A DNA stretch of 64,000 nt, taken from assembly GCA_036172245.1 (NCBI GenBank), contig JAYWIR010000032.1, positions 186,001 to 250,000 of the forward strand, in the 5' to 3' direction. The translations under genes were made by a program, and so were the position numbers. The stretch comes from Raillietiella orientalis. Taxonomy: Eukaryota. Below, piece by piece: positions 1 through 55,788 of this stretch. The notes beneath the pieces are model-generated. The model saw nothing but the letters and a program-made list of their open reading frames with translations, was not told the origin of the DNA and did not search any database. Every line of letters starts with the position of its first letter. Within the stretch, counting starts at the first letter, position 1.

Positions 1-3000
1 GCAGCGCCGACTCTTGCCACTTCAGGGGAAGAAGCCTGGATCCTATCAGTATTGGGGGCCACTTCAGGTCATCCGTCGGGATGCCGAGCAGCCCGCCCCA
101 TCTACGAAGTCCACGAGGGAAAGCACTCGGGGTCGTGGCATCCGCCAGTTCTCCCATGGTCCATCCGCTCATCTTCTTCTCCTTGCCTGCGATTCGGCAG
201 GAGACTTGCCACTTTGGCTTGCGGCCGCTTGTTAAAGCCCTCCAGAGGAAGGGCAGGGTCGAAGCTAGTGGGGTGGTCTATGCCCACGTGCTCCTGGCGG
301 TACACTCCAGAGTAGTCCGCAGTGTGCAGCGGGCGTTGGGGCCGAATCGCAGGCGGTTCAAGTCCGGGGAAGTCTGGAGGTTCAGCTTGGCCCACGTCGC
401 AACTGATTCTTCCAGCCAGGCGGAGGAGTCGGCGGGGCTGCATACCGTCCAGCCGTTGTCTCTGACCAGGGCTTCCATGCGTTCAACAAGAAGGCCGCAT
501 CTTCTCACCTTCCTGCCGGAGCACAGAAGGTACGACGCGAGTCCTTGCGTCCTGGACACACGGCTGGCGAGGATTCGGGCCGGAACGCACCAAGGGGTGC
601 TCCATGACTTTGCTGCGATGGCGAGGGTTCACCATCGCAGCTGTATTTCCAGGCGCTCCAGCGTCAGGAGGCCGAGACCGCCGTCCCGACGAGGAGCGCA
701 TAAATCATCCAGAGGCACACGTGGCCTCCCGCTGCCCCAGAGGGCTATGCGGAGTAGGTCTTTTGTCCTCTTTTCAATGTCACGGGGGACGAAGCACACA
801 AAAAGCAGGGAGCGGAGGATGGGAGCCGCGAAGGCGTTCCACACCGAGGCCCGTTCCGGCAGAAGGAACTTGCCTTCCAGGAACGGGCCGATTGCCAACT
901 CTACCTTCTGGAGACGACCTGACCAGGCTTCTGCGAGGCAGAAGTCCCCCAACGGGACACCCAGGTACTTCAGGTACCTGGCCGTGGGGATCCCCAAGCG
1001 GATCCAGTCAGGCCGTCCGACCCACGTCGCACCCACCGGTACGACCGACGACTTCGCCTTGTTTACCCGCAGTCCAGTCCCACGACTTAGCAGGTCGAAG
1101 AAATCCTCGACTGCGGCTGCCGGGGCGGACATGGGCAACATGAGCAGAAGGTCGTCGGCGTATGGTGCTACGGCGGGCGTGCCGAGGCACTAGCTGGGCA
1201 GGGCAGCCAAAGTCACCCTGTACGCTCTCAGCACCAACTCAAAGTAGGTGCTAAAGAGCAGGGGACTGAGGCTATCGCCCTGCCGTATGCCCCGCCGCAC
1301 CGACACGCCGTACACCTGTTGGCTGGAAAAGCAGATGTTAATTATGGCGTTGCGCCAGCAGGAGCGCAGGAAGGAGAGAAGGGAGGGTGGGAAGCCCATG
1401 CGACCCAGGAGCTCCAACAGTAGCTCCTGGTCAACGCAGTCGAACGCCTTATGGAGATCGACCGCGATCGCTAGGGCCCCCTTCCCAGCCCGGGTGTCCA
1501 TTCCCAGCCCAGCTGGCGGCCCCAAAGTGGGGTTGCCAATCTTTCCGCCAGTTTCATTCAGGCAGCGTTGCACATGGAACCATGTGCTCGCGAAGAACAA
1601 GTTGGCATCCATACTTCGCTTGGGAACAGCGTATGTCTGCTCCGGGCTAATTATGGAGTCTGCCACCTGTCCTAGACGCGAAGCTCACAGTATAGCGATG
1701 AGCTTGGCGTCCGTATTCACAATTGTGATCGGACGCCAGTTGCCTAGGGATCTCAGGTCTCCTCCCTTCGGGAGGAGCCACACACGGGCTGACCGAAACG
1801 AGGCGGGAACGTCGCCTTCGTCTCGGATCAGCCCGGTCAACTGAAGCACCAGGGGTGCCAGCTCTGCCGCGAAACATTGAAAGAATTCCGCAGGCAGGCC
1901 ATCCTCCCCTGGCGCCTTTCGCCTCTTGAGCCTTTTAATACCGGCGAGAATTTCACCGGTAGAAAAAGGCTCGTCGAGGCTGATCTTCTCCTCCTCCCCT
2001 ATTGCCGGGGCTCCATCCGGGAGCAGGAGCCGCGAGGCGTTCCGCTCTGGGGGTGCCCTAGCGTAGAGGGAGGAGTAATAACGTCGCACTGGGTGCCTGA
2101 TCGCAAGTGGGGCGGATCGCTCTTGGCCCTGGTCGTCCAGCAAGCTGGCCGACCCGGATTGCCAGGCTTGGCGTTCGGCCCCGGCTCGATATTCCGCGAG
2201 GCGACGGACATTCGGGGTCCTCTCGTACCGGCGGGCCTGTAGATAAGCCCGATGGTTCCGAGCCCCCTCCCCGAATCCGGGGGGCAGGCGGTGCAGGGGA
2301 AACTCCTCGCAGAACTCGCGGACCGAGGCCTTGAATAGTTCCCAGTCTTGGAGACTGCGGAGGGTGACGCCTCTCAGGAATTCGCGAAGGTGTTCTTTCG
2401 CACCTGAGAGCCGCGTCCAGTCCCCAGGCAGCCGCCACGCCCTAAACGGGGGTCCTTTGTCGCGCGGGCAAACCTCGGCGATGATCCTGGAATGGTCCGA
2501 CAGCGTCGACGCAACTTTTCCCCGTTTGCCGACCCGCGAGCACAGGTCGACATCCAGGAAGAAGTGGTCGATGCTGCGGTCCATTCCCTCCGCGTCCGTC
2601 AACAAGTTGCGCGTGCGCATGGCAGCGCACAACTCGTTGGCCGTGCGTTCTTGTGCTTCGGGCTCACCTGACAGCAGACGGAGATTAAAGTCCCCAGCTA
2701 TCAGGTGTGCCTTCCGCACGTTCGTATCGGCCAGCCAGTCGCGCTTCAGGGTTTCCAGCAATCTGCTACGGTCGCTGTATCCCCCTTACCCGCTTGGGGC
2801 GTACACGTTCGTGACGATCAATTCGATCGAGTCTGACCAGCTGAGAATCAGCTGACCGACCCGACCGTCGTCATCGAAGCGTACGCCCTTCACGGCAGCG
2901 TCAATGGCCGGCTTCACGAAAAACGCGACCCCACAGGTGTTGCGGGCGCCGCATCGCCAATACAACCGACCCCCCGCGATCGTCTCGATCTCCTGGGCGT

Positions 3001-3151
3001 CTGCCGCGGTGATCACGTGGATCTCCTGCAGCAGGGCCAGGTCGAACTCACGCAGGGTGTCGGCCGTATCTCGTCTGTTGCCGTCGTCGCGCAGCCCGTT
3101 GACGTTCCAACTGGCCACGCGGATTCGACGGCGACAGGCGAGCCCAGGTGT
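1..3151 (-). pseudogene. Element A ORF2 (APE endonuclease + reverse transcriptase) with in-frame stops
   Basis: WNVNG, LQE, NVYAP, GDFN, IDH, SDH; KAPGEDG, WRPIT, DLHKAFD, RQGDSLSPLLF, YADD, YLG. The ORF pieces starting at 3118, 2761, 1666, 1141 and 559 are all in one frame. Confidence 0.92.
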
Positions 3152-4901
3152 TATTCCTGGGAAATCGGCTCTGCGGCGTCCGCCACCTGTTGGGGCGGGA
3201 CGCTAGGTGGAGCAGGAGGGACAGGTGCCTCGAGCACCTGGTCCCCCTGCTCCATCGGTGACGGCGCGTCGAGCGGGTCACCCTCAGGTGGGGTCGCGCC
3301 TACCTGCTGGCCCTCCTCCATAGGGGTGGGCTCCTCAGGGTCCGCGACGGCAGGGGGGATTTCGCCCCCCTGCTCACCCTCCTCCATGGGGGTGTCCTGC
3401 TCGACGGCTTCCGCGCGTGGGAGCTCCCCCTCCGGGATTCCCACGCTGCCGGCGACTTCCTGCTTCTCCTCCTCGCTCGTGGAGGGGAGGCGCTTCCTCG
3501 GCTTTTGGGACTTGCGCCCCGTCTTCCGGGGGGGTGCCTCCGACGAGGAGGATGCACTTTCGGCCCCCAGGTCGCACTCACCTGCGGGGGCCTTCTTCGG
3601 CGGAGCCGGCCTTCGCACGGCCTTGCGTGAGGGGTTCTCACGCTCAGCCAGCGTGGCCGCGAGCTCCTCCGCCGCCTTCGCGAAGGCGGCGTCCTCGCCG
3701 GCGGCGAGCGCGTCGCGCGTCTCACCCTCTGTGCAAACAGAGGGTTCGCCGTCGCAAACCTCGGGCGCGGCGGAAACGGCGAGGGGAGGCTCGTCTCCCC
3801 GGGTGGCAGCCTCGGGAACGCTGATGCGCTCCAGTGCTACCGAGCACTCGCGGAGAGTTTTAGATCGCGGACCAGGTTTTTTCGCCTTCGCGACCAACTT
3901 TTCTCCGCCTTCTCTTTTGAACCCTTTTTGGGTTCTTTTCTGGCCTTTACCAGCGTCCATCCTTCTTCCTCGCCCGCGTCTTTCGCGGTTTTTTCCGCCG
4001 CCGCCTGGGTTGGAGGAGGAGGAGAAGGCTGCTGGGGCCGGCCATTCTCGCGATGAGGTCTTTCGACCTTATTCATCTTTTTCACCTGTGCCTTTTTGGC
4101 AGCAGGTGGCACCGGGGTGGGGCGTTTAGGGCACACACGACGGACGTGTCCCTTTTCCCCGCACAAGTGGCACTCGATATTCGGGCACCGCCTGCGCACA
4201 TGCCCTACTGCATCGCAGTAGCCACAATAGCGGGGTTTTCCCACGTACCAGAGGTCGACGGGCTGCTTCCCGACCTCCAGTTTGTGGGGTAACCCTGCAC
4301 CCTCGTTCACGGTGACACGCGCTGCTGCCTGGCCACCAAAGAGGCTGTTATAGCCGTCAAAAATGGTTGGCTTTGGCCACAGCGCGTGCACATCTCCGTA
4401 TTTCCTCAATTCCGCGTTCACCGCAGAGCGCGTCATGCGGTTCGTGATCCCCGTTGGATGGACCACTACGGAGCGGTCCACGCTAACGGGTAGGATCTTT
4501 CGGACAGTCACATTCAGCGGGATGTTGATGAGGCGCTGCGCTAGGGCTACGTCTTTGCAGACGACCTCCACGCGTTGCCCCCCGCTGAGTACGGCGAGGC
4601 CGTCAAGATCCTCCTCACGCACGGGGAATTCCTGTAGTGCCTTGCTAAAGGCACGCGCGGTGCGACCGTCGAACAGGTTTCTTACCTTATAAACCAGGGA
4701 TGGTTTATATCCGGAGGCCCTGTAGGCCGCTTGCTCAGCCAAGGTTTCAGCGCTCGGCGCGGCGACCATGGCGCTCCAGCTCCTCGTCTTGGGCGACGAG
4801 GGCGATTCCGGGGCGGATGCCCCTGATTCTGTAGGTCGTGGGGGGGGGCTAGTCTCCCTCACGCCTACCTCCATCGTGGTGTCCTCTGGCAGCGATGCCA
4901 T
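3151..4901 (-). pseudogene. Element A ORF1, gag-like nucleic-acid-binding protein, frameshifted near 3900
   Basis: Starts MASLPEDTT. Knuckles CGYCDAVGHVRRRC and CHLCGEKGHVRRVC. The acidic/Pro-rich C-terminus continues in ORF 3151..3960. Confidence 0.88.
3230..3395 (-). repeat. Three imperfect ~66-bp coding repeats (PMEEG.Q) in A ORF1
   Basis: Translation PMEEGEQGGEIPP...PMEEGQQVGATPP...PMEQGDQV. Confidence 0.7.
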
Positions 4902-4975
4902 CGGACACCAACGATGTGAAAAAGCACACACTGAACCAAAAAAACCGCTTTCCGCAGCTCGTTCGCGGAGCGCCG

Positions 4976-4997
4976 GAAAAACACGTCCGCTCTCGAG
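4976..4997 (-). promoter_or_regulatory. Conserved family-1 5'-terminal motif (putative internal promoter), example copy
   Basis: CT-N7-GGACGTG-TTTT-like sequence at the 5' ends of A, C, F, J, M, R, U, W and X. The function is inferred. Confidence 0.55.
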
Positions 4998-7918
4998 GAG
5001 AGGGATTTGGGGAGGGGCCGCGTAACGAAACAGGGTATCTTCAGGCCCGAAGTTACGCCAGAACCATCGACATGCGCAGGTTAGCAGAGTATCGAGCAGG
5101 AGCCGAGAGGCAAGCCTGGCAATCCGGGTCGGCCAGCTTGCTGGACGACCAGGGCCGGGAGCACTCGGTTCCCGCTCAGAAACGCGGGATAGTGAGGAAA
5201 TTTTACTCCTCCCTGTACGCCAGGGCGCCTCCGGAGCGAGACGTCTCACGACTTCTGCTCCCGGAAGGTGCTCCACCGATCGGGGAGGAGGAGAAAAGAA
5301 GCCTCGACGAGCCTTTCACGATTGACGAGATCCTCTCGGCCATCGGAAAGCTCAAGAGACGGAAGGCTTCAGGGGAGGACGGCCTGCCCGCGGAGTTTTA
5401 CCAAACTTTCGCGGCTGAGCTTACCCCCCTGGTACAGCAACTCACCTTGCTGATTCGCCAGACAGGTGACGTTCCCACCTCGTTTCGTTCAGCAAAGTTG
5501 CGGCTCCTCCCGCAGGGAGAAGACCTAAGGAGCATGAACAACTGGCGTCCCATCACAATAGTGAATGCGGACGCCAAGTTGATCGCCAAGATGTGGGCAG
5601 AGCGTCTGGGACGGGTTGCCAACATCTTCATCAGCCCGGAACAGACTTATGCTGTTCCCGGGCCGAGCATGGAGGCGAACCTGTTCCACGCTTCCACATG
5701 GTTAGGGCTCCAACGAGGAAGGGGCTTATTGAGCAGCCGGAATTCCGGTGCGTCCGTTGGCGGGAGACGGAACGGTCGGGTGGGGAAGGGAGCCCTTGCG
5801 GTCGCTGTCGACTTGCGTAAAGCATTCGACAGAGTCGACCAGAATCTCCTGCTGGAGCTTCTGGAAGGCTTGGGCTTCCCGGCCTCTTTGTTGGCCTACC
5901 TGCGCTCTAGCTGGCGCGACGCGCTCATTAATGTTCTTTTCAGCGGGCAAACCGTGCACGGAGTACCGGTGCGACGCGGCATACGGCAGGGAGACAGCCT
6001 GAGCCCCCTGCTCTTTAGCGCCTTTTTCGAATTGGTGCTGAGAGCGTACAGGGAAACTCTGGCGCACCTGCTGCGCGAATGTCCCGGTACGCCTGCGGTT
6101 TCGGCATACGCGGACGATCTTCTGCAACTGCTCCCTATGTCCACTTCGGCTTCGGAGGTCGAGGAGTTCTTCGACCTGCTGCATCGGGGAACCGGACTTA
6201 TGGTGAACAGGGCGAAGTCGTCCGTAATGCCAGTCGGAGCGGCGTGAGCAGGGCAGCAGGACTGGGTCCGTTTGGGGATCCCCACGGTGAGGTACTTCAA
6301 GTACCTTGGTGTGCCGTTAGGGGACTACTACCCTGCGGAAGCGTGGTCCAGCTGCCTCTAGAAAGAAGAGACGGCGATCGGCCCGTTCCAGGACGGCAGG
6401 TTCTACCTGCAGGAACGGGCCGCGGCGTGGAACGCTTTTGCGGCACCCCTCCTTCGCCCTTTGCTTTTTGTTTGCCCTCCTCAGCGGAGTCAAAGAAGAG
6501 GACGAAGGACCTCCTGAGGATCGCCCTTTGGGGCAGAGTGAGGCCCCGAGTCCGTCTTTCGGACTTGTGCGCTCCTGGTCGGGATGGTGGTCTGGGCCTC
6601 CTGACGTTGGAGCGGCTGGAGCTACAGCTCCAGTTCCGAGTTGTCGCCTTTATGGCAGAAAATTGGTGCACCCCATGGTGCCTCCCTGCACGTCTCCTCG
6701 TCGAGCGGGCCACCGGCAATGCGGGACTCTCGTCCTACTTTGCACTCCGAAGCCTTATCTGCCACTGCGGACTTTAACTTCGGAGGGCGGCCAAGCTCGT
6801 GAAGAACAACTCGGCGCGGATCCTCGTACGCCCCGCGAACTGTCCTGCCTGGCTGCAGGAAACCGTGCGCACGTGGGCGATGATTCAGGAGCAGAGCCCG
6901 CAACACGAGCGAAAAGCTCTGTTCGGGCCGCATGCCCACCGCACGCTCCGAGAAATCATCGAGGATCCCCGAAGGAGAGCGTGGGCACAAAGAACCTCCC
7001 TTGCTGCGGTACTGCCTACCCTACGGGAACATCTGGGCAGCGACGTCGCGGCACAATGGGAGGTTACTGTCAAGATCGCCAGCAGGGCAAAGAAGATCGG
7101 GGATTGGAGAACGGGTCAGCTCACCAACGCTGCGACCCCGAGGACCACCCCAAATGGACTGTTGCGCTGGGGAGAGCTACTGGATGTTCCAGAGGAACAT
7201 CTCGAGTGGCCCCCGGTGCTCATGGACTCGCGCACCCTCCCCATGAAGTGGCAACAGTCGGCACTGATGGTGTTGCATTGGGGGCTTCCTTGCAACGCCC
7301 GCCGACACCACTGGACGCGGGGGGGTGTCAACCCTAATTGTGTCAGGTGCGGGGAGAGGGAATACCTCCCCCACCTGTTAGTGGATTGTGTTGCCCTCCG
7401 TCCCTTGTGGGAACGCTTTGCCGCAGCCCTGGGGATCCCCGCAGGCAACCCCAGAGACGCTTTGCTCCCCCTCTTCGTCCGTGACGCCCTGCCTCCAGCG
7501 GCCTTGCTTGCAGCCCTGTGCTGCCTACGCGGGATCGTCGTGGCATGGAGCAAAGCGACGGGAGGATCCAGCGACAGGGATGCCAACGTGTATGCCGCCC
7601 GTTTCCTCAGGATGGCGACGCGATGGCCCCATCTGGAACCACACACGCAGAAGCAGCTTGCCGGCATCCTCCACAGGATGACGGACCCTCCCAGCAGACT
7701 GTGATCCCTTCGCGCTCCCTCCCTGATTTTTGTTTATTTTTTTGTTTTCTTTTTGTTTCGTTCCCCCTCCCCTCTGCTGCCGAAGTCGACCGCGCCGGTC
7801 TGCGCACCGGTATCCCGGCAAGCTATATCTTTCCAGGGTGTGGCTGGACTACTGGTCCATTCACAGATTATATAGGTTTATTCGTGAGAATAAACGTCCC
7901 GGCGCACCCGGGTTTCAA
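4998..7918 (+). mobile_element. Element B: 3' part of family-1 LINE (RT, C-terminal Zn finger, 3' UTR, intact 3' end)
   Basis: DLRKAFD, QGDSLSP, YADD (ORF 4895..6247); CVRCGEREYLPHLLVDC (ORF 6799..7704); AATAAA 7889-7894 followed by a hairpin. Confidence 0.92.
7889..7918 (+). terminator. Family-1 3'-terminal signal (example): AATAAA + CCCGG-CGCAC-CCGGG hairpin + short A run
   Basis: The same arrangement, variably degenerate, ends copies at about 11113, 11922(-), 17513(-), 22952, 27082, 32729, 42081(-), 43110(-), 47161(-) and 55758. Confidence 0.8.
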
Positions 7919-10531
7919 TCGAGGTTGCGGAGGATGACGCCTCTCGGGAACTGTCGGAGATGTTCCGCCGCACCGGAGACGCGCGTCGAGTCCCCTTGGC
8001 ATACGCCACGCCCTGGATGGTGGTCCTTTCTCGCGTGGCATAATTTCGATTATCAACCGGAAGTTGTCCGATAGCGTCGACGGAATTTTCCCTCGTCTGC
8101 CGACCCGTGGGCACAGGTCGGCGTCAAGCAAGACGTGGTCTACGGTTTGGGCCATTTCCGGTAGGTCCCCTAGCAAGTTGCGCGTACGCATAGCGGCGCA
8201 CAACTCGTTGGTTGCGTCTTTTTGCCTGCAAGGCACACCTGATAGCAGGCGGATGTTGAAATTACCACCGATCAGATGTGCCTTGCGTACGTTTGTATCT
8301 GCCAGCCAGTCGCGCTACAGGGTTTCGAGGAACCGGGAACGTTCACCGTACCCGCGTCCTCTGCTCGGAGCGTACACATTAGTCACGACAAGATCGATCG
8401 AGTCGGACAACCTAATTATAAGCTGGCCAACCCGACTGTCCTTGTCGAATCGTACGTCCTTGACGAAGGAAGCGACTGCTGGCTTCATAAAATACGCGAC
8501 GCCACAGGTGTTGCGAGCGCCGCATTGCCAAAACAGACGACCCCCTGCGATCATTTCGATATCCTGGGCGATCTCCGCGGTGATCACGTGGATCTCCTGC
8601 AGGAGTGACAGGTCGAAGTCACGCAGGGTGTCGGCCGTGTCCCGCCTGTTGCCGTCATCGCGCAGCCCGTTGACGTTCCAGCAGGCTACGCGTATCCTAC
8701 GGCGACAGGCGAACCCAGGTGCTAACCCTGGGAAACTGTCAATGGGCCTCCCACCACCTGGTCGAGCTGGACGCTAGGCGGAGGGGTTGCGTCGCGCACC
8801 GCTTCTTCCTCCTCCATGAAAGCCAAATTTTCAGCAGTGCCGTGCAGAGAAAGGGGGGGTTCATTCACCTGCACTTCTTCCTACATGGGAGTCGCCAGCG
8901 GCACGGTGTCGGGGAATGAGATATTCCACCGTCGCCTCCCACGCTGCCGGCTTCCCCCTCGGGGGCCGATTCATCCGCCTCCTTATTGATCCGGATGCGC
9001 CTCCTTTGATTCTGAGACTTCCGTCCCGTCTTCTTTGGTGGCTCCCCCGCTGAAGAGGACGCACTTCCGACGTCCGGATCGGCCTCACCTGCCTCCGGAG
9101 CCTTCCTCGCGGCCGGCCTTTGCAAGGCTTTTCGCGAGTTCTTTTCACGGCCTTGCAATTCAGCCGTGAGTTGTACCACCGGCTCCTGGAAGGCGGCCTC
9201 CTCGATCGCGTCGAGCGCGGCGCGCGGTTCCCCCTCTGTTTCGCCAGAGGGATCACCATCGACCATCGCAACTTCGGCGGACGCGAGGGGGGGGATTGCT
9301 CCCCCGGTGGCGGCATCAAGTGCCTTCACACGTTCTAATTTTACCGAACATGCGCGGAGCTTTTGGCGGCACGGGTTTTCGCGCTGCGTTTTTGTTTTCA
9401 CCGCGTTTCGTTCGGGACTCCCGGGTTTTCTTCGTGGCTGTACCGTCTGTCAGCCTTCGCCGTCACCAGCGTCGTCGGGAGTGTTCTCAACCGACGTTTG
9501 CTGTGAGGGCTTAGGGACTGGCATCTGGGTGTTTGCAGCCTGTATCTGTTTATGCGTCTCCCCCGTGCGTTTCCCCTTTTCCTTTTTTGCAGCGGATGGG
9601 GGCGGGATTTCTCTTCTTGGGCACACCTTACGGATGTGGCCCTTATTTCCACATAAGTGGCACTGGATGTTAGGGCACCGCTTTTTTAGATGCCCTGTAG
9701 CATCGCAATGGCCACAATACTTGGGCTTACCCACGTACCAAACATCGTCTTTTTCTTCGCCGATATTCAGTTTGTGGGGAAGCCCAGCATTCTCTGGTAG
9801 GGTGACGCGGGCTGCGGCCATCCCTCTGAATAGCCTTTCGTACGTTCGGAAGACATTGGGTTGGGCGCAATACGCGTGCACACTACTATGCTTCGACAAC
9901 TCCTCATGGACTCTGGTTTTGTCCATTCGGAGTGATACGCCTGTGAGGTGGACCACGATGGAGCGGTCCTCCGTCACAGGGAAGATCCTGCGGTCGTCCA
10001 CCGTAATAGGGATGTTCAGCAGTCGCTGCGCCAGACTTGCCTCTTTGCATGTCAGCTCAACTCGCTGGCCCCCACTAAGGACGGATAGGCTTAGAAGGTC
10101 TTCCTCCCTCACGTTCAAACTTTGCAGCTCCATTCCGAAGGAGCGTGCAATTTTTTCATCAAACACACTGCCCACCTCATAGATCAGAGACGGCTTGTAG
10201 CCGCTGTTCTTGTAGGCAGTCTGCTCCGCTACTGCATCCGGGGATGGTGCAGCAACGACGTCACTCCAACTCCTCGCCAATGGCGAAGAGGGTCGCGAAG
10301 GGGCGGTTGCCCTCGATTCCGATGGGGCAGGTGCCTCGGATTCCTAGGGGGCGGATGCCCCCACTTTTATTGGTGGAGAAGATCATGTCGCTTCTCCTAC
10401 TTCAAATTCCATGGCGGTGTCCTCAGGCATTTCTGCCATGGGACACCGGTGCTCCCACACACCAGACAACCAACGAAAAGCTTCCCACTAACCAGTCCCT
10501 GGAGCGATGCCAAACCACGGCCGCTCCCTAG
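7919..10531 (-). mobile_element. Element C: 5' part of family-1 LINE (5' UTR, disrupted ORF1 10439-8722, EN)
   Basis: 5' end CTAGGGAGCGGCCGTGG; knuckles CGHCDATGHLKKRC and CHLCGNKGHIRKVC; EN WNVNG...NVYAP; broken at 7919 by the 3' end of B. Confidence 0.9.
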
Positions 10532-15733: not shown

Positions 15734-15741
15734 TGATGCGT

Positions 15742-45221: not shown

Positions 45222-47160
45222 CTCCAAGGTGGACGTGTTTTCTCGGTGCTCCTCGTGCCACGAAGTCCTCCCCAGTGCAAGCGTCGTGTGGTTCGGTGGT
45301 CGATCAGGCAGCGATGCCTGACGCGACGACCAGGGATGCCCAGGGGGTAACGGCAACGCCGCCCCCAGAGGCGATATAGAGCCAGGGGGTGGCGGCAACG
45401 TCGCCCCCAGAGGCGATAGAGGTGGGGGCATCCGCCCCCATAAAATCGGTCTTCGCATCAGCGCGGGCGTGGAGCGCCGTTGTGTCGGCGCCATCGCCTA
45501 CAGCCGCGGCGGAATTGTCGGCCTATGTAGAGAAGGGGTACCACCCCTCATTGTTCTGCAAGGTAGGCAATTTATATTCTTTAGAGAGCGCGCGCGCCTT
45601 TTCGAAGGGCATGCGCGCTCTCGATGTGAAAGAAGAGGAGCTCAGCGCTATGACCATCCGCAGCGAGGGTCAGTACGTTGAGGTCATCTGCAAAGAAGAA
45701 TAGCTTGCCCAAGGACTGCTTAAAACCCCCGTGGTGATGAAGACGCGCAGGCTCCTCCCTGTTACGGAGGACCGCAGCACGGTGGTCCACCTTTTAGGCG
45801 TTACCGCGCTAATGCGCAAAGAACAGGTTCGCGCCGCTCTAGAACAGTTTGGAAGGGTCCACGCGCACAGGACGAAAGTTAGTCCCTTTGAGGACTACAC
45901 GAGGCTGCAACACGGCCTCACGGCTACGCGCGATGCACGCGTGACCGTTTGGGAGCACTCCACTCTTCCCCACAAACTGGTGGTCGAAGGCGAAACCGTC
46001 GACCTGTGGTATGTGGAGAAGCCGAAATAATGCGGCTTCTGCAATACGTCAAACCACCTCAAAAAGAGGTGTCCCAATGTGCAGTGTCAAGTATGCGGAA
46101 CCATGAGACACACGAGGGAGGTGTGCCCTAAAGGAGCAGTGCGGGTGGTTTCCAACAGAAAGCGTAAAAAGCGCGCCCGGCTTCTGCAGAAAAGGCTGGC
46201 GGCGAAAGCTGCCGCGAAGGCTGTGATACCCGCGCCCAAGACCCAGGCCGAACCTGAGACCCCGGCGACCAACGCCGAAAAAGTTGAGGGGGCCGGATAG
46301 GAGACTGGGTGGCAAGTGGCAACGGCCAAAAAATCAAAGAAGCAGAAGAGGATGGAAAAACAAATCGCCTACCAACAGAAGAAGATAGAGCAGGGTAGCG
46401 CGATAATTAAAGAGTGCAGCGTTGTCGTCGAACGCGTTCCCGATGTTGCCGAACGCTGCCAGAAAGAACTAGCCACTACCTACGACCTCCCCTCTGTTGA
46501 CTCTGTAAACAGCGTGGGGAGCGAGCCAGCGGCGGCGTCCGTCATTGACAATACCATCGATGACGTAGCCTTCGCGTGAGCCGCGGAGGAACTGGCTGAC
46601 TCGTTGCAGCCAGAACCCTCCAAGGCTGGCAAGAAAGCGTTACGGCGTCGGGCCTCCCCTACGGAGTCCCCCACTACCAATCCCGAGATGGAGGCCGGAA
46701 GCTCAGCCTCCGTTTCCAGGGCACCCCGCAAGAAGGCTGGACGTAAGTCCACAAAGCCGATGAAGTCCATCTCCCCTGTCGAGGGGAAAGAGATGGCTTC
46801 CGCAAGCGAGGGTGCCATGAGCGTGGGAAACTCGCGGGACCCGTCGCCCGAGAGAATCCCACGCGCGGACACTGAGAGGATGGAGGGGGTGGACGCCGAA
46901 CAGGTGCCTCAGGTGCCTGAGAAGGCCGGAACCCCCATGGGCATACAACCCGCCTCGCAAGAGGCGGGTTTTCCCACACCTTAATCTTCCCAGCAGTAAT
47001 GCCGGGAATCTCCTTCCGCCGTGGTCTGCACATCGCCGTTTGGAACGTGAACGGCATGGCAGACGCCGGCAGGAGACGAGACATGGCCGCCTTCTCGAGT
47101 CCTACGACCTTGCGCTGCTGCAAGAGATCCACGTGATATCTGCAGAACAAGCGCAAGAGA
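45222..47160 (+). mobile_element. Element U: 5' part (J subfamily ORF1 45314-46984 with stops, start of EN), broken by V
   Basis: 5' end CTCCAAGGTGGACGTGTTTT; two knuckles; TAATG at 46997-47001; WNVNG. Confidence 0.9.
45339..45420 (+). repeat. Tandem duplication of ~42 bp in U ORF1
   Basis: CCAGGGGGT..CGGCAACG.CGCCCCCAGAGGCGATA occurs twice; a diverged version is in X, and J has a single copy. Confidence 0.8.
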
Positions 47161-50100
47161 TTTCTCACCCGGTCACGCCGGGGCGTTTATTGCATATAAC
47201 ATAACCAAAAAAACCAATTATACAAAATAAACCAGTTGGGAACCAAACTCCCAGCCGACGACTGAACAAGAATGAAGAGAATATTGCTGGCACGCAGGCC
47301 AGAGTAACAGTTTTGCGAACGGTGTGGGGGGGAGAGGAACACAAAGAAACCAAAATAAAATAAAAACAATGAATAAGGAGGACGGGATAAGGGTCTTCAG
47401 TATCGCTCTGGAAGACACGGGGATAAAAGCATGGGCACCGGAACTTCTACCGAGCGAACGGGGATGGGGTATGGTTGGGCGAGGGGTCGCAGGGGTCGCA
47501 GGATTACGCCGTTCTCAAAGGTGTGTAAACCGGCGATGTATGCCGGTGATGTCCTCATTCACCTTGTCACGAAGATGAGACCACCTTGAAGCCTTCTCCA
47601 TGAATTGAGCTGCAAGCAGGTGAGCCTCCCTTCGCTGCGCTGACAACTCCAGGGCGTAGCGGGCCTTCACGATGGCGCGAACGCAACACATGATTGCGAC
47701 AATCGCGCCAACCGAAAGTCCATTTCTGCTGAAGAAGCGCCGCAGCACATCAATGGCAGTGCCTCCTTGTGGCATGATGTCCGAGGTGAGCCTTCGCCAC
47801 AGTTCCCGGAGGTCACCGCAGTCCAGCAAAAGGTGCTGAAAAGACTCGATCTCTCCGCACCTTAAACAGTTTGGCAAAGCAGCTCCCCCGGAGACGATGC
47901 TTCGCTGCCTATTACAGTGTAATGCACAATGTAAAAAAAGCAGCACATCTTGTTTCCACTTTAGAAGGAACACGGAGCTGTCCAAACCAACGGGGGGAAC
48001 CACTATCTTTCCGGGGGGCACACTTAAATGTTCGCTCCACCGAAGCAGGCCCTTCGCCCGATTCCGAGGAGTGGCGGCTTGCACCAGCTCCTTTGTCGTC
48101 CAGCAGCCGAGGAGCTTACTGACTCCCGCTATTTTGCAGGAGAACTCCCATTCCGCGGGTAGGCAGCCGTCGTTGCTTGCCCTGAGGGCAGACAGCCTTC
48201 GGCGAGTGGTATGGCGGCCAGACGATCCGACAACTTCTTGTCCTGCATGACTTCGTCCATTTGATGACTGAGGAGAAGTCGCAGGCGACGAAGGTCTTCC
48301 GGGCGCGTTCCTTCGGAAGCTGCCCACGATGAAAAAGATTCCTGCCGCTATGCATTAATGTTCATGGGACGGCAGGAGATCCAGCTTTGGGCTTCCAGCA
48401 GTGTGGACAGCTGCCTCAGCGGGAAGCGAAACCCTATTCTGGTGTGCCGAAAGTGGGGTAGCAACGAAAGCAGTCCCTCGCTTCCCGTGCAGCGCCTCAG
48501 TATAAGTCGTGTGGGTAAGCACCACGGCGTACACCACAGCTAGGCACAGAGCCGCAGCATGCGAAACTGCACCTGCAGTTCGATGCTGTTTAAGTCGAGG
48601 ATGCCCAAGCCTGCATCCTGACGAGGCGTCACCAAGTCTTTAAGTCTAACACGGGATCTTGCAGCGCCCCACAACGCTTTGCGTAGAAGGCGCTGCGTCC
48701 AGACTTTGACTTCCTGGGGGGGTTAACAAACAAAAAATAGGGGGCGGAGGAGGGGGCCAACAAAGGTGTTCCAGATGCAGGCGCGTTCCGGCAAGACGAA
48801 CTCGCCTCCTGAAAACGGGCCAAGTGCACGCTCTGCCTTCCGAAGGCAGTCCGACCACGCTTCTGAGATGCAGAAGTCGCCCAACGGCACGCCAATTCAC
48901 CTGAGGTACCTGCCCGTGGGGATCCCCAGGCTAATCCAGTCGGACTGCCCCTCCCACGTCTCACCCACCGGAACAACCATACACTTACTCCTGTTAACGC
49001 TCACGCCCGCACCGCGACGAATCAACTCAAAGATGTCTTCAAGCGATGTCGCCGAAGTGGACATGGGCAACAGGAGGAACAGGTCGTCGGTATGGGCTGC
49101 CAAGGCCGGCGTACCTGGACAGGAGCACGGCTGGTTGGCTAGCGTCAGCCTGTAAGCCTCCAGCACCAATTCAAAATAGATGCTAAAAAGCAGCGGGCTT
49201 AAGCTTTCAGACTGCCTAATTCCTCGTCGTACCGGCACACCGTATACGCGACAGCCACTGAAAACAATGAATGTAATCGCGTGGCGCCAGCAGGAGCGCA
49301 AGTACGCCAACAGGGACGCCGGGAGGCCAAGACGTTCCAAAAGCTCAGGAAGAAGCTTTTGGTTCACGCAATCGAAAGCTCTATCCAAATCGACTGCAAC
49401 CGCCAAGGCTCCCGGTGTCTCTCTTTGCGTTGCGCGCCTGCTTCGGTGAGAGACCGAAGGCGTCGCTTTCGCGCGACGATCCAGCGCCACACGATGCTGC
49501 AATTGCAGCCATGTGCGGATGAACAAGAGATTCGCGTCCATGGACCGCCCAGGAACAGTGTACGTGTGCTCCGGGCTTACCAGGGATTCCGCGATTCATC
49601 CATCCGCGGCATTCAACGTTTCGAGATCAACTTGACGTCCAAATTCACTAATGTGATCGGACGCCACTTGTTCAGTTGGCGCAAATCTCCGCCTTTCGGC
49701 GGTAGACGCACCTTCGCTGAGCGGAACGAGGCAAGGACATCGCCCGAGTCTCGCATCAGCGGCGATAGTTGGAGCACCAGGGGGATGAGGTCCGCCGCAA
49801 AACACTGGAAGAATTCCGCAGGGAGCTTGTCTTTGCCTGGCGCTTTTCGTCTCTTTAGCCCCGAGATGGCCGAGGAAATTTCCTCTGCCGTGAAGGGCTT
49901 ATCAAGACGTGCGCGTTCCTCCTCGTCTACAACAGGTGCATCAATCGGCAGAAGCAGCCGGGAGAGGCTGAGTTCCGTCGGTGCCTCTCCATACAGAGAA
50001 GAGTAATAGCGACTGACTTACCGTCGCACGTCGCCTGGAGCCGAGCATTCGTGGTCCTGGTAGTCTCGCAGAACTGTCGCCCGTGACTGCCAGACCTGGC

Positions 50101-50281
50101 GCTCGGCCTTGGCCTTTTGCTCGGATACTCGACCAATGTCCGCGCGATTGGAAAAGTAGTGGGCCTGCAGCAAATCTCTGCTGTTGGCTACGCTTTCTCC
50201 GAAGCCGCGCGGAAGCTGGTGCAAAAGAACCCGGCAGCAGAACTTGCGGACCGATCTTTTCAGATCGTCCCAGTCCTCGAG
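47161..50281 (-). mobile_element. Element V: 3' part of family-1 LINE (H/K-like)
   Basis: Begins at LEDWDDLK, DLDRAFD, HTDD, CLRC...HLLLDC; 3' end AATAAA + CCCGG-CGTGA-CCGGG at 47161-47191. Confidence 0.9.
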
Positions 50282-53200
50282 CTCGAGCATACGGGTTTTT
50301 CTTTCGCTCTTGAGCGTTTATTTTTTTATTTTTTTTCTTGGCCTGCCAGTGGATTCGTTGGTGGCTAGGCAGCAATGCCTGGGACCACCACCAATGTTAA
50401 GGAGGGGGCGACTTCTATGTTCCCTCCTGAATCAATGGATGTTCGGTCAACCGACTTAACAGAAGCGTCTCCCTCGCTAGGGAGAAGCTGGAGTTCCGTG
50501 GCTGCGGCGCCAATGCAAGCGGCTGCGGTAGAGTTGAAAGCCTAGTTGGAGGAGGGGCACAATCCCCCTCTACACTACAAGGTAGGCAACCTTTACTCCT
50601 TTGAGAGTGCACGCGCTTTCTCGAAAGTACTCCCTCAAAGTACCACAGGAGGAGCTCTTGGAGATGACCATCAGGAGTGGTGGACAGTACGTTGAGGTGA
50701 TTTGCAAAGAAGCAAGTCTTGCCCAGCGTCTGCTCCGTACACCTGTTCCTTTAGGCAATTGCCGGCTCCTCTTCATCACGGAGGATAGATCTATCGTGAT
50801 CCACCTCCAAGGAATTACCTTCCGGATAGATGAAGAGGCTGTCCGAAAGGAACTAGTTAAATTTGGAACTGTCCACGCTTTGTGGAAAAGGCCGACTCCG
50901 TTTTGGGAGTACGATCTCCTGAATTGCGGTATGGCTTCCGCGCGCATGACCGTCCGCGAGGGTTGCTCCCTACCTAACAAGCTGGAGGTCAACGGCGAAC
51001 CCGTTGACATCTCGAATGTCGGTAAGCCGCCTTTCTGCGGGCATTGCAGCACTTCAGGTCACCTGAAAAAAAGGTGCCGTCACTTGCAGTGCAAGCAATG
51101 CAAGCAACCCGGGCACACTCTTTCAGTGTGCCCGCAAAATGAACTCCGCGTCGCATCCGCACGGAATGCGAAGAAGCGCGCGGCGAGAAAAAGACGAGTT
51201 CAGGCAGCCCGAGAGAGAGCCGCCGCTTGAAACACAACTATCGTGCTCCAGGTGAAGGTCAGCTCCGAGATCATGGAAAACTCGGACAAGGTCGAGGAGA
51301 ACGGCCCGGAACCTGGATGGCAGGTAGTAAAATCCAAGAGGCAGCAAAGCCTCAAGGAAGAAAAAAAAAATGTCGCCAAACGCAGCGAGAATTTGCCGCG
51401 TCGCGAAAAGATCAAACGCTGATCTGTCGTCATCAAGCGCATTCCTGCGTTCGAACAGAGCGGCAAAATTGCACTCGCCGCTGCCTACTTTCACCCTCCA
51501 GCAAATTAATCCCGGAGGCTATCGACCCGGCGGTAACGTCCGTCGTCGAACGCATGCTCGACGACGTCGCCTTTGAGCGAGCGCCGGAGGAGCTCGCTGC
51601 GTCCTTGCAGCGTCCCCTGAAATCCGCGAAAAAGCCTTAAAGCGTCCGACGTCGATCAAGAAGTCGGAGATTACGAACTCTGACGCGGAGGCGGAAAACA
51701 CAGCCTCCGGCATCGCGGCCTCCCGCCCGAAGGCCAATCGCACGAAGAAGGCTACCCGCAAAATTATCCCGTCCGTGGAAAAGGGAGAGATAATTGAGGG
51801 AAACGAGCGTGCCAATAAAGTGGGGAACTCCGGGGACTCTCCTCGAGAGGTAACCTCACGCTGCGACCCCGGAGGGAGGGAAAGGGTAGAGTCTGTGCCT
51901 TAGGTGCTCCAAGTGCCTGAGATTGCCGCAGTCCCCTTACTCGTCCCTCCTACCTGTCCGTTGACAGGTGCTGCAACGGCACGTTCCCAGCCTTAATGCC
52001 GAAAATCGCCTCTTGCCGCCGTCTGCGAATTGCCTGTTGGAACGTCAACGGGCTAAGCGACGACGGCAAGAGACGAGACGTGGCCTCCACCCTGTCATCG
52101 TTCGACCTGGTGCTGCTCCAAGAGATCCACGTGATCTCCGCAGACCAAGCAACGGAGATCGAGCGTATCTCGGGTGGACGGCTGATGTTGCGTAGCGGCA
52201 CCGTTGAATCTTGCGGTGTCGCGTTTTTGCTTCGGCCAGCTGTCGAGGTCGTGGCAAACGGCGTACGGTTCGATAGTGCCGGTCGCGTCGGGCAGTTGAC
52301 CATCAGGTGGTCCGACTCCATCGTTCTGGTCATTACGAACGTGTACGCCCCAAGCGGCAGCGACGCGCTAAGGGCAAAGGCAAGGAGAGATTACTTCCTT
52401 ACCCTGAGGCGCGAATATCTGGACGAAGCGGGAGTGCGCAAAGCGAACCTAATCGCAGGTGACTTTAACCTGCGACTGCTGTCAGGTGCATCTGACACAC
52501 TTCGGGACCGCGTGAACGAGCTGTGCGCAGAGATGCAGACGCGCAACTTGCTCGCGGGAGATCCGGAAATGGCCGACAGCATTGATCACGTGTTTCTTCA
52601 CCAGCACCTATGCTCACGCGTGGGCAGGCGCGGCAAGTTACCGTCGGAACTTTCGGAGCATGACACGATCGTACTCGAGGTGCGCCCACGCGACAGGGTT
52701 CCGCCGTCATCTGCGTGGCGCTTACCGGGGGACTGGCTGAAACTGCCGGAAGTCGCGGAGCATCTTCGCGGATTCATACGAGGTTTCAGCTTGCAGACGC
52801 TTCAGAACTGGTACCGCTTCAAGCGCTCGGTCCGGAATTTTTCGGACGAGTCCCCTATGAATCTCCTGCCTGCCGGATTTGGTGAAAGCGTGCGTAATGA
52901 GAGATGGGAATTACAATCTCGATGTTACGCGCGAACACTAGACGTACGCAGGCTAGCCAAATACCATGCGGGAACCGAGAGGCAGGCGTGGCAATCCGGG
53001 TCGGCCAGCTTACTGGACGACCAGGGTTCGGAGTACTCGGCCCCCGCCCAGTCAAAAGGCTTATTAAAAAAATTCTACTCCTCTCTGTACGCGTGCTCCA
53101 CCGGAACGAGATGTCTTGCGATTTCTTCTTCCAAAAGGCGCTCCGGCGATCGGGGAGGAAGATAGAAAGACCCTCGACGAGCCTTTCACGATGGGCGAGA

Positions 53201-55788
53201 TCATCTCGGCCATCGGAAAGCTCAAGAGGCGGAAGGCTCCAGGGCAGGACGGCCTGCCAGCGGAATTTTTTTAATGTTTCGCGGCAGAGCTAACTCCTCT
53301 GGTGAAGAAACTCACCTTGCTGATCCGCGAAACGGGCGACGTCCACGCCTCGTTTCGTTCGGCAAAGGTGCGTCTCCTGCCTAAGGGTGGAGACCTTCGG
53401 AGCATGAGCAACTGCGGCCGATTACCGTGTTGAACGCGGACGCCAAGTTGCTGGCAAAATTGTGGGCTGAACGCCTGGGGCGGTTAGCGGAAAGCTTCAT
53501 TAGCCCGGAGCAGACATATGCTGTTCCCGGGCGGAGCATGGATGCCAACCTGTTCCTCGCCAGCACATTTTTCGCGCTCCAACAGGAAAGGGTCAGGATG
53601 GGCAACCGGCCTTCCGGAATGTCCGCCGCTAGGAAACAGGTTGGTTGGGGGGAGGGCGCCCTCGCAGTCGCAGTCGATTTGCATAAAGCATTCGACTGTT
53701 TCGACCAGAGGTTCCTCCTGGAGCTCCTGGAACGCTTGGGCTTCCCGGTCTCTTTGCTGACCTACTTGCGATCCTGCTGGCGCGACGCGCTCATCCAGAT
53801 CTTTTTCAGCGGACACACCGTGCACGACGTACCAATGCGACGCGGCATACGGCAGGGAGACATCCTCAGTCCCTTGCTCTTCAGTACCTACTTCGAGTTG
53901 GTACTGAGAGCGTACAGGGACACTCTAGCGCACCTGCCGCGCGACTATCCCGGTACGCCCGCGGTGTCAGCATATGCGGACGACCTACTGCTGCTGCTTC
54001 CTATGTCCACGTCGGCATCGGCGGTCGAGGAGTTCTTCGATCTGCTAAGTCGGAGAACCCGGTTTGAGGTGAACAGGGCGAAGTCGTCCGTCATGCCAAT
54101 CGGTGCGGCGTGGGCAGGGCAGCCGGACTGGGTGCGTTTGTAGGTCCCCACGGTACGGTACTTCAAGTACCTCGGTGTACCGGTAGGTGATTATCTCCCT
54201 TCGGATGCATGGTCCAGCTGCCATCAGAAGGTAGAGACGGCGATCGGTCCGTTCCAAGGCCGCAGGTTTTTCCTGCCGGAACGGGCCGCGGTGTGGAACG
54301 CATTCGCGGCCCTTCTCCTCTGTTCCCTGCTTTTTGTTTGTCCCCCCACCACAGAAAATAAAAAGCGGACGAAGGACCTCCTAAGGATTGCCCTTTGGGG
54401 TAATGGGAGGGCCCGAGTCCGGCTTGAAGACTTGAGCGCTCCCCGTCAAGACGGCGGTCTCGGCCTCCTGACGCTAGAGCGGCTTGAGCTTTAGCTCTAG
54501 TTTCGGTTACTCGCCCTAGTGGCGAAACATTGGAGTAGCAGTTGCTGCGAGCCCGCACGTCTCCTCGTCGAACAGGCTACAGGCAAGGTGGGACTGTCAT
54601 CCTTCCTTGCGCTCCGTCAACGCCGCCAAGTCGGTCACTGCGGGTTGCACCTACGAAGAGTCGCTGACCTGATGTGGAAGAACGCAGGATGGTTCTGCTG
54701 TCGCCCCGTTAACGGACCTGCACGACTGCAGGAAACGGTTCAGACGTGGGCGAGGAGAACCAGCAACGCAACCAAGAAGGGCAGAGACAATTCTTCGCCC
54801 GTAATGACCACCTGACGCTCCGGGAGGTCCTGAAGAACCCCCCAAAACGAGCGTGGGCAAGAAAAACTTCCCTCGCTGCAATGCTGTTTCCGCTCGCGAA
54901 ACATTTAAACGGCAACACTGCTGCGAAATGGGATGTTTTCGTCAAAATCTTTGGTACGGAGAAAAAGATCGGGGAATGGAAAATGGCAATTCTCTGCGAT
55001 ACCGCGACCCGGACTATCACCTTTATTGGAGTATTGCGCTGGAGCGAGCTGCTAAATGTTCCGCATGAACAATTAAAGTGGTCCCCGGTGCTGATGAACG
55101 CCTCCACCCTTCCCTTCAAATGGCAGGAGACGGCGCTATTGTTGCTGCATTGGAGACTCCCCTGCAACGCCGCCCGACACCATTGGACCTTGGAAACAGT
55201 GAGCTCTAATTGTGCGAGGTGTGGAGCACGGCAGTCCCTCACTCACGTCTTTTTGGATTGTGTGGCTCTTCGGCCCCTTGGGTTCCGCTTCGCCGCGGCC
55301 ATCGGAATCCCTTTCGGCATTTCCAGGGACGTTCTGAAAGCCCTATTCGTTGCCGACGCCCTTCGGCCGGCGGCCTCGTTAGCAGCCCTGTGCTGCTTTC
55401 GCGGGATCGTCGCCGCCTGGAGAAAGGCTACGGGAGGATCACACGACCAGGATGCCATCCAGCCAGGCTCACAGTTCCTGAGGAGGGCGTCCCGATGGCC
55501 ATACCTGGATCCAGGAATACAGAAGAAGCTTGCCGGCATCAAGCAAAGGATGCAACGGCCCCACCAGCAACTGTGATTCCTTCCCTTACCCTCCCAACTT
55601 TCCTTTTCTTTTTTGTTTTGTTTTTTGTTTTTTCCTTCTACCCCCTGCTGCCGTGGTAACCGTACCGGTATGCGAAGCGGTGACCCGGCAAGCTCCGAAT
55701 TTCTTGGTGGCTGGTGCAATTGTCCAGCTACGGCACGTCTTTGTAAATGTCCATTGCAATAAACGCCCTGGAGAAATCCGGGTGAAAA
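50282..55788 (+). mobile_element. Element W: full-length, disrupted family-1 LINE (ORF1 ~50375-51996, ORF2 51996-55576)
   Basis: Degenerate 5' motif, knuckles CGHC...C and CKQC...C, complete EN, RT with YADD, Zn finger, AATAAA 55758-55763 with hairpin. Confidence 0.93.

Follow-up and report, generated by a model that had tools for sequence, protein, structure and literature searches.

R1, R2 and Tx1-type LINEs insert in fixed orientation at one nucleotide position, with rDNA or another repeat as the target, and copies end up head-to-tail where one site is hit repeatedly. Twin priming of L1 is a mechanism of 5' inversion. The Zepp elements of green algae have poly(A) tails. As described in passages of the reports on them, the Zepp and ZeppL L1 clusters of green algae are LINE-only, were built by insertion into existing copies and are GC-richer than their surroundings (PMC3446292, PMC8226300), and the Zepp arrays consist of tandem, mostly 5'-truncated 3' ends (PMC8226300).

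The 64,000-nt stretch of Raillietiella orientalis DNA analyzed here (the window) was found to be a GC-rich cluster of LINEs with APE and RT domains and a CCHC ORF1, in which two stacks of copies may be rated as a variant of Zepp-type self-targeting; the likening is by description. Similarly to the Zepp clusters as these passages present them, the cluster is LINE-only, is composed of nested copies of one LINE group and has a GC content above that of its surroundings (0.55-0.65 inside the stacks vs 0.47-0.53 between them, with an outward drop from 0.63 to 0.53 within stacks). By contrast to the tandem 5'-truncated arrays described there, 10 of the 14 visible 5' ends were full length and orientation alternated; the 3' ends also differed from those of Zepp in being without poly(A). 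The locus resembles target-specific LINEs (R1, R2 and Tx1-type) in that independent copies share position and orientation, one copy (R8) has a short target stretch at its 5' end and head-to-tail copies are present. However, at least 10 distinct target positions were used instead of a single exclusive one, and these lie in the coding sequence of LINE relatives rather than in rDNA or another repeat. Adjacent pieces in opposite orientation are shared with L1 twin priming, but here the pieces are of different subfamilies.

Identity of the elements and mapping of junctions

Junctions were located by mapping the window onto a near-full-length copy, Y (11922-17500, minus strand), supplemented by all-against-all blastn, local alignments at junctions and base-level reading; element coordinates ("reference") are positions in Y. 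Matches to Exo_endo_phos, RVT_1 and zf-CCHC were detected when 76 ORFs were scanned against Pfam. An apurinic-type endonuclease (EN), N-terminal in ORF2, matched PF03372 (E=3.3e-11 at 51921-53162 and 2.9e-8 at 61180-61908), and reverse transcriptase (RT, PF00078) was found in 11 of the 76 ORFs (best E=1.7e-19). For a C-terminal zinc-binding region, the match to zf-RVT was below the cut-off (PF13966, 23.6 vs 27.5 bits), and the CCHC knuckle of ORF1 matched PF00098 at 20.9, 21.2 and 24.4 bits vs a cut-off of 20.8. A search for homologues of ORF1 detected none. Relatives of ORF2 were L1/Tx1-like (approximately 30% identity), and the 56 longer homologues found were EN+RT proteins of approximately 20-33% identity. 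The elements are classed as APE-type non-LTR retrotransposons of the L1/Tx1 group.

All nine 3' ends examined carried AATAAA or AACAAA, and in seven of the nine a hairpin of 5-7 bp was followed by a short A-rich tail (2-6 A); a poly(A) or simple-repeat tail, as in other members of the L1/Tx1 group, was found at none of the nine. An inverted 3' piece was located directly upstream of an intact 5' end in 7 of 10 cases.

Two chains of alternating orientation

In both chains (1-27111 and 41800-57713), sense pieces whose 5' end is intact were observed to alternate strictly with antisense pieces whose 3' end is intact. The left chain, when read on the minus strand from 27111 to 1, is K, J, H, E, D, C, B and A. 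The innermost visible copy of this stack, A (1-4997, minus), has an intact 5' end at approximately 4994-4997 and exits the window at reference ~4909; it also carries an RT match (Pfam). The broken end of B (4998-7918, plus; reference 2640 to end) adjoins the 5' end of A, and its 3' end, intact at 7918 (AATAAA, hairpin, TTTCAA), adjoins C (7919-10529, minus; reference 1 to 2549), which is broken at recurrent site S1 and has an intact 5' end at ~10529. D (10530-11142, plus) is a 3' piece (~4936 to end) whose 3' end, intact at 11142, adjoins E at S3. E is in two minus-strand pieces, one downstream (11143-11912; reference ~1362 to 2038) and one upstream with an intact 5' end (19155-20297; reference 1 to 1361), between which X and Y are located. 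Y is sense relative to E and is flanked by target copies, CAACCCGCC(GCC), at 11913-11921 and 17501-17512. X (17513-19142, minus) is 5'-truncated (3951 to end), 95% identical to Y and head-to-tail with it, and a third copy of the target is at 19143-19154; around X and Y, the 12-nt target thus occurs three times in all. Positions 17056-17540 are bridged by a 485-nt contig of run X1.

Further outward, H (20298-22982, plus; reference 2842 to end) has a 3' end intact at 22982 that adjoins J (22983-24135, minus; reference 1 to ~1150), and the intact 5' end of J adjoins K at S2. K (24136-27111, plus; reference 3452 to end, with its 3' end intact at 27111) is interrupted by gamma3 (25849-26724, minus), an 876-nt 5'-truncated copy with both flanks visible, and resumes at 26733. 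This copy is a complete antisense insertion, flanked by an 8-nt duplication of the target, GTTAGCTA (25840-25847 and 26725-26732), and the host continues past the guest; K is collinear with R6 across the insertion. Target duplications were seen at two loci, around X/Y (12 nt) and around gamma3 (8 nt). Directly behind the 3' end of K, L' (27112-28673, plus) has a 5' UTR-like start, with an EN region from ~27499.

The right chain has the same build as the left and, when read on the plus strand, is R2, R2b, R3, R4, R5, R6 and R7. R2 (41800-42080, plus; reference 1769 to 2047) is broken at S3 and adjoins the intact 3' end of R2b (42081-42449, minus), a 3' piece from ~5240 to end. R3 (42450-43109, plus; reference 1 to ~640), 89% identical to E and with its 5' end intact, adjoins the intact 3' end of R4 (43110-45219, minus; reference 3465 to end), which is broken at S2, where it meets the intact 5' end of R5 (45220-47161, plus; reference 1 to ~1950). 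The intact 3' end of R6 (47162-50282, minus; reference 2565 to end) adjoins R5, and R6 is broken at S1. R7 (50283-55788, plus) is full-length, with EN at 51921-53162, RT at 53385-54140 and its 3' end at 55788. Between this end and the 5' end of R8 is a 14-nt copy of the antisense S2 sequence, TCGAACGCCTCATG (55789-55802, plus). The flanks of R7 mismatch and do not form one target, the left being S1 of R6 and the right being the S2 14-mer with R8. R8 (55803-57713, plus; reference 1 to ~1904) is 93.5% identical to R5 and abuts a broken gamma-family copy. The copies gamma1 (~57714-60426, minus), cut at both ends, and gamma2 (60436-~63950, minus), with a CCHC ORF1 and EN, are of a divergent LINE family and share one orientation (57714-63950); the outer end of each is approximate. 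Where R8 meets gamma1, both ends are broken and no intact end is present.

Orientation of LINE-into-LINE insertions

An intact end was found to meet a broken relative in opposite orientation at 14 junctions in the window, seven via intact 3' ends (B, D, H, gamma3, R2b, R4 and R6) and seven via intact 5' ends (A, C, E, J, R3, R5 and R7); each stack shows one flank in the window, and host continuation with a target duplication is visible at one of the 14. Sense insertions numbered three, X and Y in E (one site) and gamma1 behind gamma2. Antisense insertions made up 14 of 17 (two-sided binomial p=0.013) and, within the two chains alone, 13 of 13. Three head-to-tail abutments of an intact 3' end onto an intact 5' end on the same strand were also detected (X onto Y, K onto L' and R7 onto R8), none of which the initial annotation had listed; when these are scored as sense, antisense insertions are 14 of 20 (p=0.12).

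The initial annotation of this DNA had reported that LINE-into-LINE junctions are mostly antisense, and the bias was confirmed here. Of the 15 junctions it listed, 14 were matched (taken as A/B to J/K, L/K and Q/P to W/V); the remaining one, N/O, was not confirmed as an intact-end junction, since R2 begins at the ORF2 start (reference 1769) and has no 5' terminus. Its sense exceptions, a pair at one site (F and G) and a possible further case (Y1/Y2), were borne out as X and Y in E and as gamma1 behind gamma2. LINE sequence adjoined 11 of 11 visible intact 3' ends, in agreement with the claim that the elements insert into their own relatives. In target-primed reverse transcription (TPRT), an antisense insertion means that the host's sense strand was nicked, and the equation of antisense insertions with such nicks follows from this logic.

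TTCGA was found 47 times on the sense vs 40 times on the antisense strand, and GTTCGA 14 vs 8 times; thus, a short motif is unable to set the orientation.

Age order and subfamilies

Host and guest were 51-72% identical where measurable (A/B 72%, R6/R7 62%, X and Y in E approximately 51%). Because guest and host subfamilies differ, as in A/B and R6/R7, the junctions are real LINE-into-LINE insertions and not one element inverted. Divergence among copies was greatest at third codon positions (e.g., 0.235/0.149/0.446 for A-B), in support of several co-existing subfamilies. Private-branch divergence at second codon positions was 0.028 for A, 0.047 for B, 0.057 for R7 and 0.066 for R6 among the inner copies and 0.111 for R4, 0.116 for K and 0.130 for H among the outer ones. 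For R5 and its host R4, the intervals were separate (0.027, 0.019-0.035 vs 0.111, 0.076-0.143). Inner copies are young and outer copies old.

Recurrent insertion sites

Recurrence of sites was observed in both stacks. Five pairs of insertion sites were within 20 nt of each other vs 1.0 expected (p=0.005), S2 being used three times and S1, S3 and the X/Y site twice each. J and R5 both abut S2, an antisense KAFD-coding site, within approximately 1-13 nt; these guests are 84.8% alike, whereas their hosts, K and R4, are just 60.5% alike. R8 also carries 14 nt of S2. S1 was used by B and R7 (80% alike), from opposite sides in C and R6, and S3 was struck by both D and R2b. Several sites contain TCGA within conserved EN/RT motifs, and TCGA is absent from four or five nick sites. 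Because positions recur, several of them at TCGA sites in such motifs, target choice looks sequence-directed at the nick site.

Break points of hosts with a visible 5' part were all at x<0.46 and those of hosts with a visible 3' part all at x>0.46. Such a split (6 vs 7) arises in 1 of 1716 permutations; with the S1 pair left out, the figure is 1 of 462. It is not predicted by simple nesting with position-independent choice and may reflect subfamily-specific target regions.

Discussion

We consider serial nesting, antisense and at nick sites chosen largely by sequence, to be the best reading of the two stacks and, on balance, probably the correct one. It is preferred because gamma3 is visible whole, divergence rises outward and hosts that are approximately 60% identical were struck at the same position. 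By this mechanism, each copy would enter the previously arrived copy by TPRT; the host sense strand would be nicked, and guest and host would therefore be antisense. The nick site would be picked largely by sequence, such that related guests could reach the same position in very different hosts. Old copies may lose target sites by mutation, leaving the newest copy as the best target, and chains rather than bushes would be formed for this reason. We infer that every chain junction was a guest-in-host event and that site recognition resides in the endonuclease or RNP of the element.

The initial annotation had proposed that targeting is guided by a transcriptional R-loop or by RNA homology. Nesting would again be serial and antisense, with the strand set by an R-loop that displaces the host sense strand, formed by host transcription or by incoming homologous LINE RNA. 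We regard this as unlikely, although an antisense rule at more than 10 different positions, for which a single recognition motif is insufficient, would be accounted for, stacking into the newest copy fits the need for a transcribed target, and conservation around recurrent sites S2, S3 and S4 exceeds the 75th percentile. Taken together, the 15 insertion positions showed no enrichment in regions where the copies are conserved (mean percentile 0.59, p=0.13), which leaves the proposed guide unsupported, and five of the 15 (650, 1220, 1361, 4936 and 5240) were below the 30th percentile, in regions of approximately 40-50% likeness between guest and host. Furthermore, the same nucleotide was reused in different hosts, which a strand displaced along the whole loop would not predict, and an outer-host promoter reading through an antisense guest would be expected to place the next guest antisense to the transcript, unlike the alternation seen.

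Less probable again is an origin of the stacks in coupled head-to-head pairs, in which a full-length copy inserts in sense into the previous full-length one and the other end of the break primes an abortive, inverted and 5'-truncated partner; the nesting itself would then be sense and not antisense. Penelope-like elements often have such an inverted 5'-truncated copy at their 5' end, as a passage of one report describes, and the stacks resemble them in having an inverted 3' piece immediately before a full-length copy; the same passage describes these structures as unseen in TPRT of non-LTR elements (PMC8557442). The endonuclease here is APE-type, by contrast to the GIY-YIG type that goes with a PLE-type RT in those elements. 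The strict alternation of full-length sense with antisense 3' pieces and the inverted 3' piece upstream of 7 of the 10 intact 5' ends are consistent with coupling, as is the size of the visible pieces, all of which are at most 0.54 of an element (p=0.0003 under uniform choice). Yet the arms differed in subfamily in both of the two testable pairs (A/B and R7/R6) and also in age, R4 being much more diverged than its putative partner R5. The unrelated K and R4 end at the same S2 position, which random truncation would not predict, and gamma3 is inverted and truncated without a full-length partner, its host continuing beyond it.

We find it improbable that orientation was random at insertion and that sense copies were later lost or hidden by recombination or cDNA-mediated conversion between like-oriented homologues. 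The initial annotation had suggested that recombination between direct repeats purges sense insertions; the youngest pair, X/Y (95% alike), constitutes the clearest sense insertions and is the pattern that this would leave, and none of the two comparable host-guest pairs was of the same subfamily. For the pairs seen, however, such a purge is unlikely, as an identity of 51-72% is too low for efficient homologous recombination. X and Y share approximately 51% identity with E, so nothing would remove them later, and the reuse of sites would be left unexplained. Assembly errors or inversion breakpoints are very improbable: repeat clusters are hard to assemble and broken ends meet at R8/gamma1, but copies that are 50-80% alike are not easily confused, the 14 junctions are exactly at element termini (3' hairpin and tail, or 5' UTR start) and X/Y and gamma3 have target duplications. 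A twin-priming-type inversion of one element was rejected, as the coordinates of adjoining pieces fail to meet, except at B/C.

Serial antisense nesting at sequence-chosen sites may be part of a broader scheme, which we hold as tentative and rather doubtful. Co-existing LINE subfamilies would use conserved coding motifs of their relatives as integration sites, always on the sense strand, with each copy disabling, and stacking antisense into, the newest active one; the antisense rule would arise from integration into homologous DNA (e.g., nascent cDNA or element RNA pairing with the host strand) and not from one recognition motif. That some LINEs target their own relatives is already known, and the present stacks extend this behavior; if the broader scheme is true, it would mean competition between LINE lineages, which would also build LINE-only, possibly centromeric, arrays.

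Composition of the two LINE stacks

GC content was 0.55-0.65 at 1-28 kb and 42-58 kb, the regions of the left (1-28673; pieces A to E, H, J, K, L', X and Y) and right (41800-57713; pieces R2 to R8 and R2b) LINE stacks, compared to 0.47-0.53 in between. Within the lower-GC stretch between the stacks (28674-40000), ORFs of at least 100 aa had no Pfam match above the curated cut-off, and only a few old LINE fragments were found (31263-32582, 33080-33534 and 39490-39754). Exo_endo_phos, RVT_1 and CCHC knuckle domains were detected by Pfam in the long ORFs of the window. The closest database proteins were L1/Tx1-type ORF2 proteins with EN and RT (and zf-RVT) domains at ~20-33% identity (56 matches). 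A search for ORF1 homologues detected no relative, and a metagenome scan for relatives returned a single weak locus (L001; 44% over 35 residues).

The almost whole copy Y (11922-17500, minus strand) was used as a coordinate system of 5591 nt, in which ORF1 spans ~90-1756 and ORF2 starts at ~1773. Single in-frame stops with no frameshift over ~2 kb were found in ORF2 of A (632-2785, minus) and Y (12500-14998, minus), suggesting that these ORFs decay mainly by point substitution.

All nine 3' ends examined carried AATAAA (AACAAA in R2b) and none of the nine had a poly(A) run. When folded sequence by sequence, seven of the nine formed a short hairpin of the CCCGG...CCGGG type, with 2-6 A's after it. 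Full-length 5' ends shared the start (C)TCGAG..GGACGTGTTTT, located ~70-100 nt upstream of the ORF1 ATG. A 45-nt stretch between R6 and R7, once taken for an antisense 3' fragment, was withdrawn as such, since alignment places it with the beginning of the 5' UTR in R8 and J.

Public sequencing runs (Logan contigs) were also searched, and DNA run X1 contained 0.15 of the sampled words; no RNA run was listed. Many short X1 contigs were 90-99% alike to the LINEs of 1-20000, including one across X|Y that differs by 5%; copies related to these, or a related strain, are therefore present elsewhere. The joints listed in X1 contigs are cross-matches among copies and were non-decisive.

Architecture of the stacks

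The stacks were mapped by blastn against Y, all-against-all blastn, local alignments and base-level reading. Positions on Y are given in brackets. Read on the minus strand from 27111 to 1, the left chain consists of antisense K(3452->end), J(1->~1150), antisense H(2842->end), E(1->2038), antisense D(~4936->end), C(1->2549), antisense B(2640->end) and A(1->4909), the last cut by the window edge. Starting at 41800 on the plus strand, the right chain consists of R2(1769->2047), antisense R2b(~5240->end), R3(1->~640), antisense R4(3465->end), R5(1->~1950), antisense R6(2565->end), the whole of R7, 14 nt, and R8(1->~1904). Each sense piece in these chains starts with an intact 5' end and each antisense piece has an intact 3' end, with the opposite end broken and adjoining the intact end of a neighbor. 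The flanks of R7 are two different sites, and the end of R8 adjoins the broken copy gamma1.

Off the chains, X and Y lie within E in sense orientation and gamma3 lies antisense within K. Copies gamma1 and gamma2 (57714-63950, minus; 57.7-64 kb) are members of a divergent family and share one orientation, and the truncated 5' end of gamma1 adjoins a break in gamma2. Their overlap in EN/RT forms a direct repeat at 59412-61469 (59412-60426 vs 60452-61469; 72.6% identity), which arose by sense insertion or by partial tandem duplication. The presumed ORF1/5' region of gamma2 includes a 27-nt tandem repeat of 3.2 copies (63568-63654). At 27112-27520, piece L' has a normal-looking 5' UTR and an ATG only ~270 nt before the EN region; from this spacing, its ORF1 seems to be mostly missing.

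Probable guest-in-host relationships and relative ages

Four results favor the chain junctions as real guest-in-host events. The antisense copy gamma3 (25849-26724) is visible whole as an 876-nt 5'-truncated insertion with GTTAGCTA on either side, beyond which K resumes collinear with R6. Three copies of a 12-nt target flank X and Y; thus, this site was hit twice. In target-primed reverse transcription, sense pieces that lack a 3' part cannot be primary products and so must have hosted the element that abuts them with its 3' end. Finally, element ages fit the nesting order. Private-branch lengths at second codon positions were 0.028 (A), 0.047 (B), 0.057 (R7) and 0.066 (R6) for inner elements and 0.111 (R4), 0.116 (K) and 0.130 (H) for outer ones, the two branch sets being taken from different element parts and private branches including some active-lineage change. 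R5 (0.027 [0.019-0.035], all sites) sits in R4 (0.111 [0.076-0.143]) and is much the younger of the two, and GC declines outward along the stacks. Differences among copies were richest at third codon positions, indicating that several subfamilies evolved side by side.

Two other readings of the pieces were rejected. B is not the inverted 3' half of C, as might be supposed from positions 2549 and 2640 nearly meeting, since B is closest to R7, and in its 5' half R7 resembles C at only 51%. Nor are the antisense pieces simple truncated insertions between two sense copies: judged by eye, the expected target duplication was missing in four of five cases, and the fifth was the CTCGAG motif common to 5' termini.

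Orientation of insertions

Of eleven visible intact 3' ends, seven (B, D, H, gamma3, R2b, R4 and R6) lie against broken relatives in antisense orientation, one (Y) against a broken relative in sense orientation, and three against the 5' end of another copy on their own strand (X|Y, K|L' and R7|R8). Of ten visible intact 5' ends, seven (A, C, E, J, R3, R5 and R7) likewise lie against broken relatives in antisense orientation and the remaining three are these head-to-tail cases. Truncated 5' ends were visible in X, gamma3, gamma1 and R2 (n=4). The proposal of the initial annotation that these LINEs insert nearly always antisense into their relatives held, with the junctions read as insertions, at 14 antisense to 3 sense (X, Y and gamma1) insertions (two-sided binomial p=0.013), or 14 of 16 when X and Y were counted once (p=0.004), and weakened to 14 of 20 (p=0.12) when head-to-tail abutments were counted as sense. 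The junction it labeled N/O involves no intact end.

Recurrent insertion sites

Insertions recurred at a few sites within host LINEs. At S2, which encodes the RT motif KAFD, J and R5 (84.8% alike) adjoin the antisense strand of the coding sequence within ~1 nt after alignment. A common origin of the junctions K|J and R4|R5 was rejected, because their hosts, K and R4, are only 60.5% identical and fall into different subfamilies (R6 and H grouping with K, and A with R4). R8, the sister of R5, is separated from the 3' end of R7 by 14 nt of antisense S2. With the different host subfamilies, this indicates that the S2 hits were independent and not copies of one junction. S1 (reference ~2549-2565) was used by B and R7 (80% alike); C gives the view of it from the 3' side and R6 that from the 5' side, the two overlapping by ~6 nt. 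S3 was used by D (2038) and R2b (2047), and at S4 the breaks of R5 and R8 are 46 nt apart. Five site pairs lay within 20 nt compared to 1.0 expected (p=0.005). The nick adjoins TCGA at S1, S2, S3 and S4; TCGA is missing at four or five other sites.

In the three head-to-tail abutments (17501-17512, 27100-27125 and 55789-55802), only 0-19 nt separate an intact 3' end from the intact 5' end of the next copy on that strand. At X|Y (17501-17512) a copy of the 12-nt target lies in between, and at R7|R8 (55789-55802) the 14 nt of antisense S2. These arrangements suggest either that a single nick site was used repeatedly, as it was for X and Y, or that template jumping took place.

Break positions and candidate explanations of orientation

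Break positions were regular: below 0.46 of element length in all hosts with a visible 5' part and above 0.46 in all with a visible 3' part (6 vs 7; 1/1716 permutations, or 1/462 without the S1 pair). The largest visible host piece was at most 0.54 of the element, and each was the shorter side of its element. This regularity led us to consider whether each full-length copy might enter in sense orientation accompanied by an inverted, truncated partner, as described for Penelope-like elements (PMC8557442). However, the arms belong to different subfamilies in both testable pairs, R4 is much older than R5, the unrelated K and R4 share a break position, and gamma3 has no partner. The regularity may instead reflect subfamily-specific target regions, as the J/R5/R8 and E/R3 groups were targeted in ORF1/EN and the K/H/R6 group in RT.

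Guidance by RNA-DNA homology, put forward together with the antisense rule, is disfavored, since insertion sites showed no enrichment for sequence conserved between copies (mean percentile 0.59, p=0.13). A strand-biased nick motif was rejected, with TTCGA occurring 47 times in sense and 40 in antisense in 41.6 kb of LINE sequence and the best 6-mer 14 and 8 times.

Relation to known self-targeting LINEs

Nested self-targeting is described for Zepp and Zepp-like L1 clusters, which by contrast are described as tandem arrays of truncated 3' ends (PMC3446292, PMC8226300). The covered literature on LINE-in-LINE insertions yielded no antisense rule or other statement on orientation and none on repeated hits at sites within conserved EN/RT motifs; the orientation point may still be in print, and the primary Zepp papers (Higashiyama 1997, Yamamoto 2003) fall outside this coverage. 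On the basis of 17 events in one window, the antisense nested stacks would extend known self-targeting.

In several green algae, self-targeting LINE clusters are the candidate centromeres. If true genome-wide, an antisense rule with reuse of few sites in conserved EN/RT motifs would provide a concrete, testable integration mechanism, and it would imply that LINE subfamilies inactivate one another. Antisense stacking would also generate long imperfect inverted repeats and antisense transcripts, with bearing on silencing and array stability.
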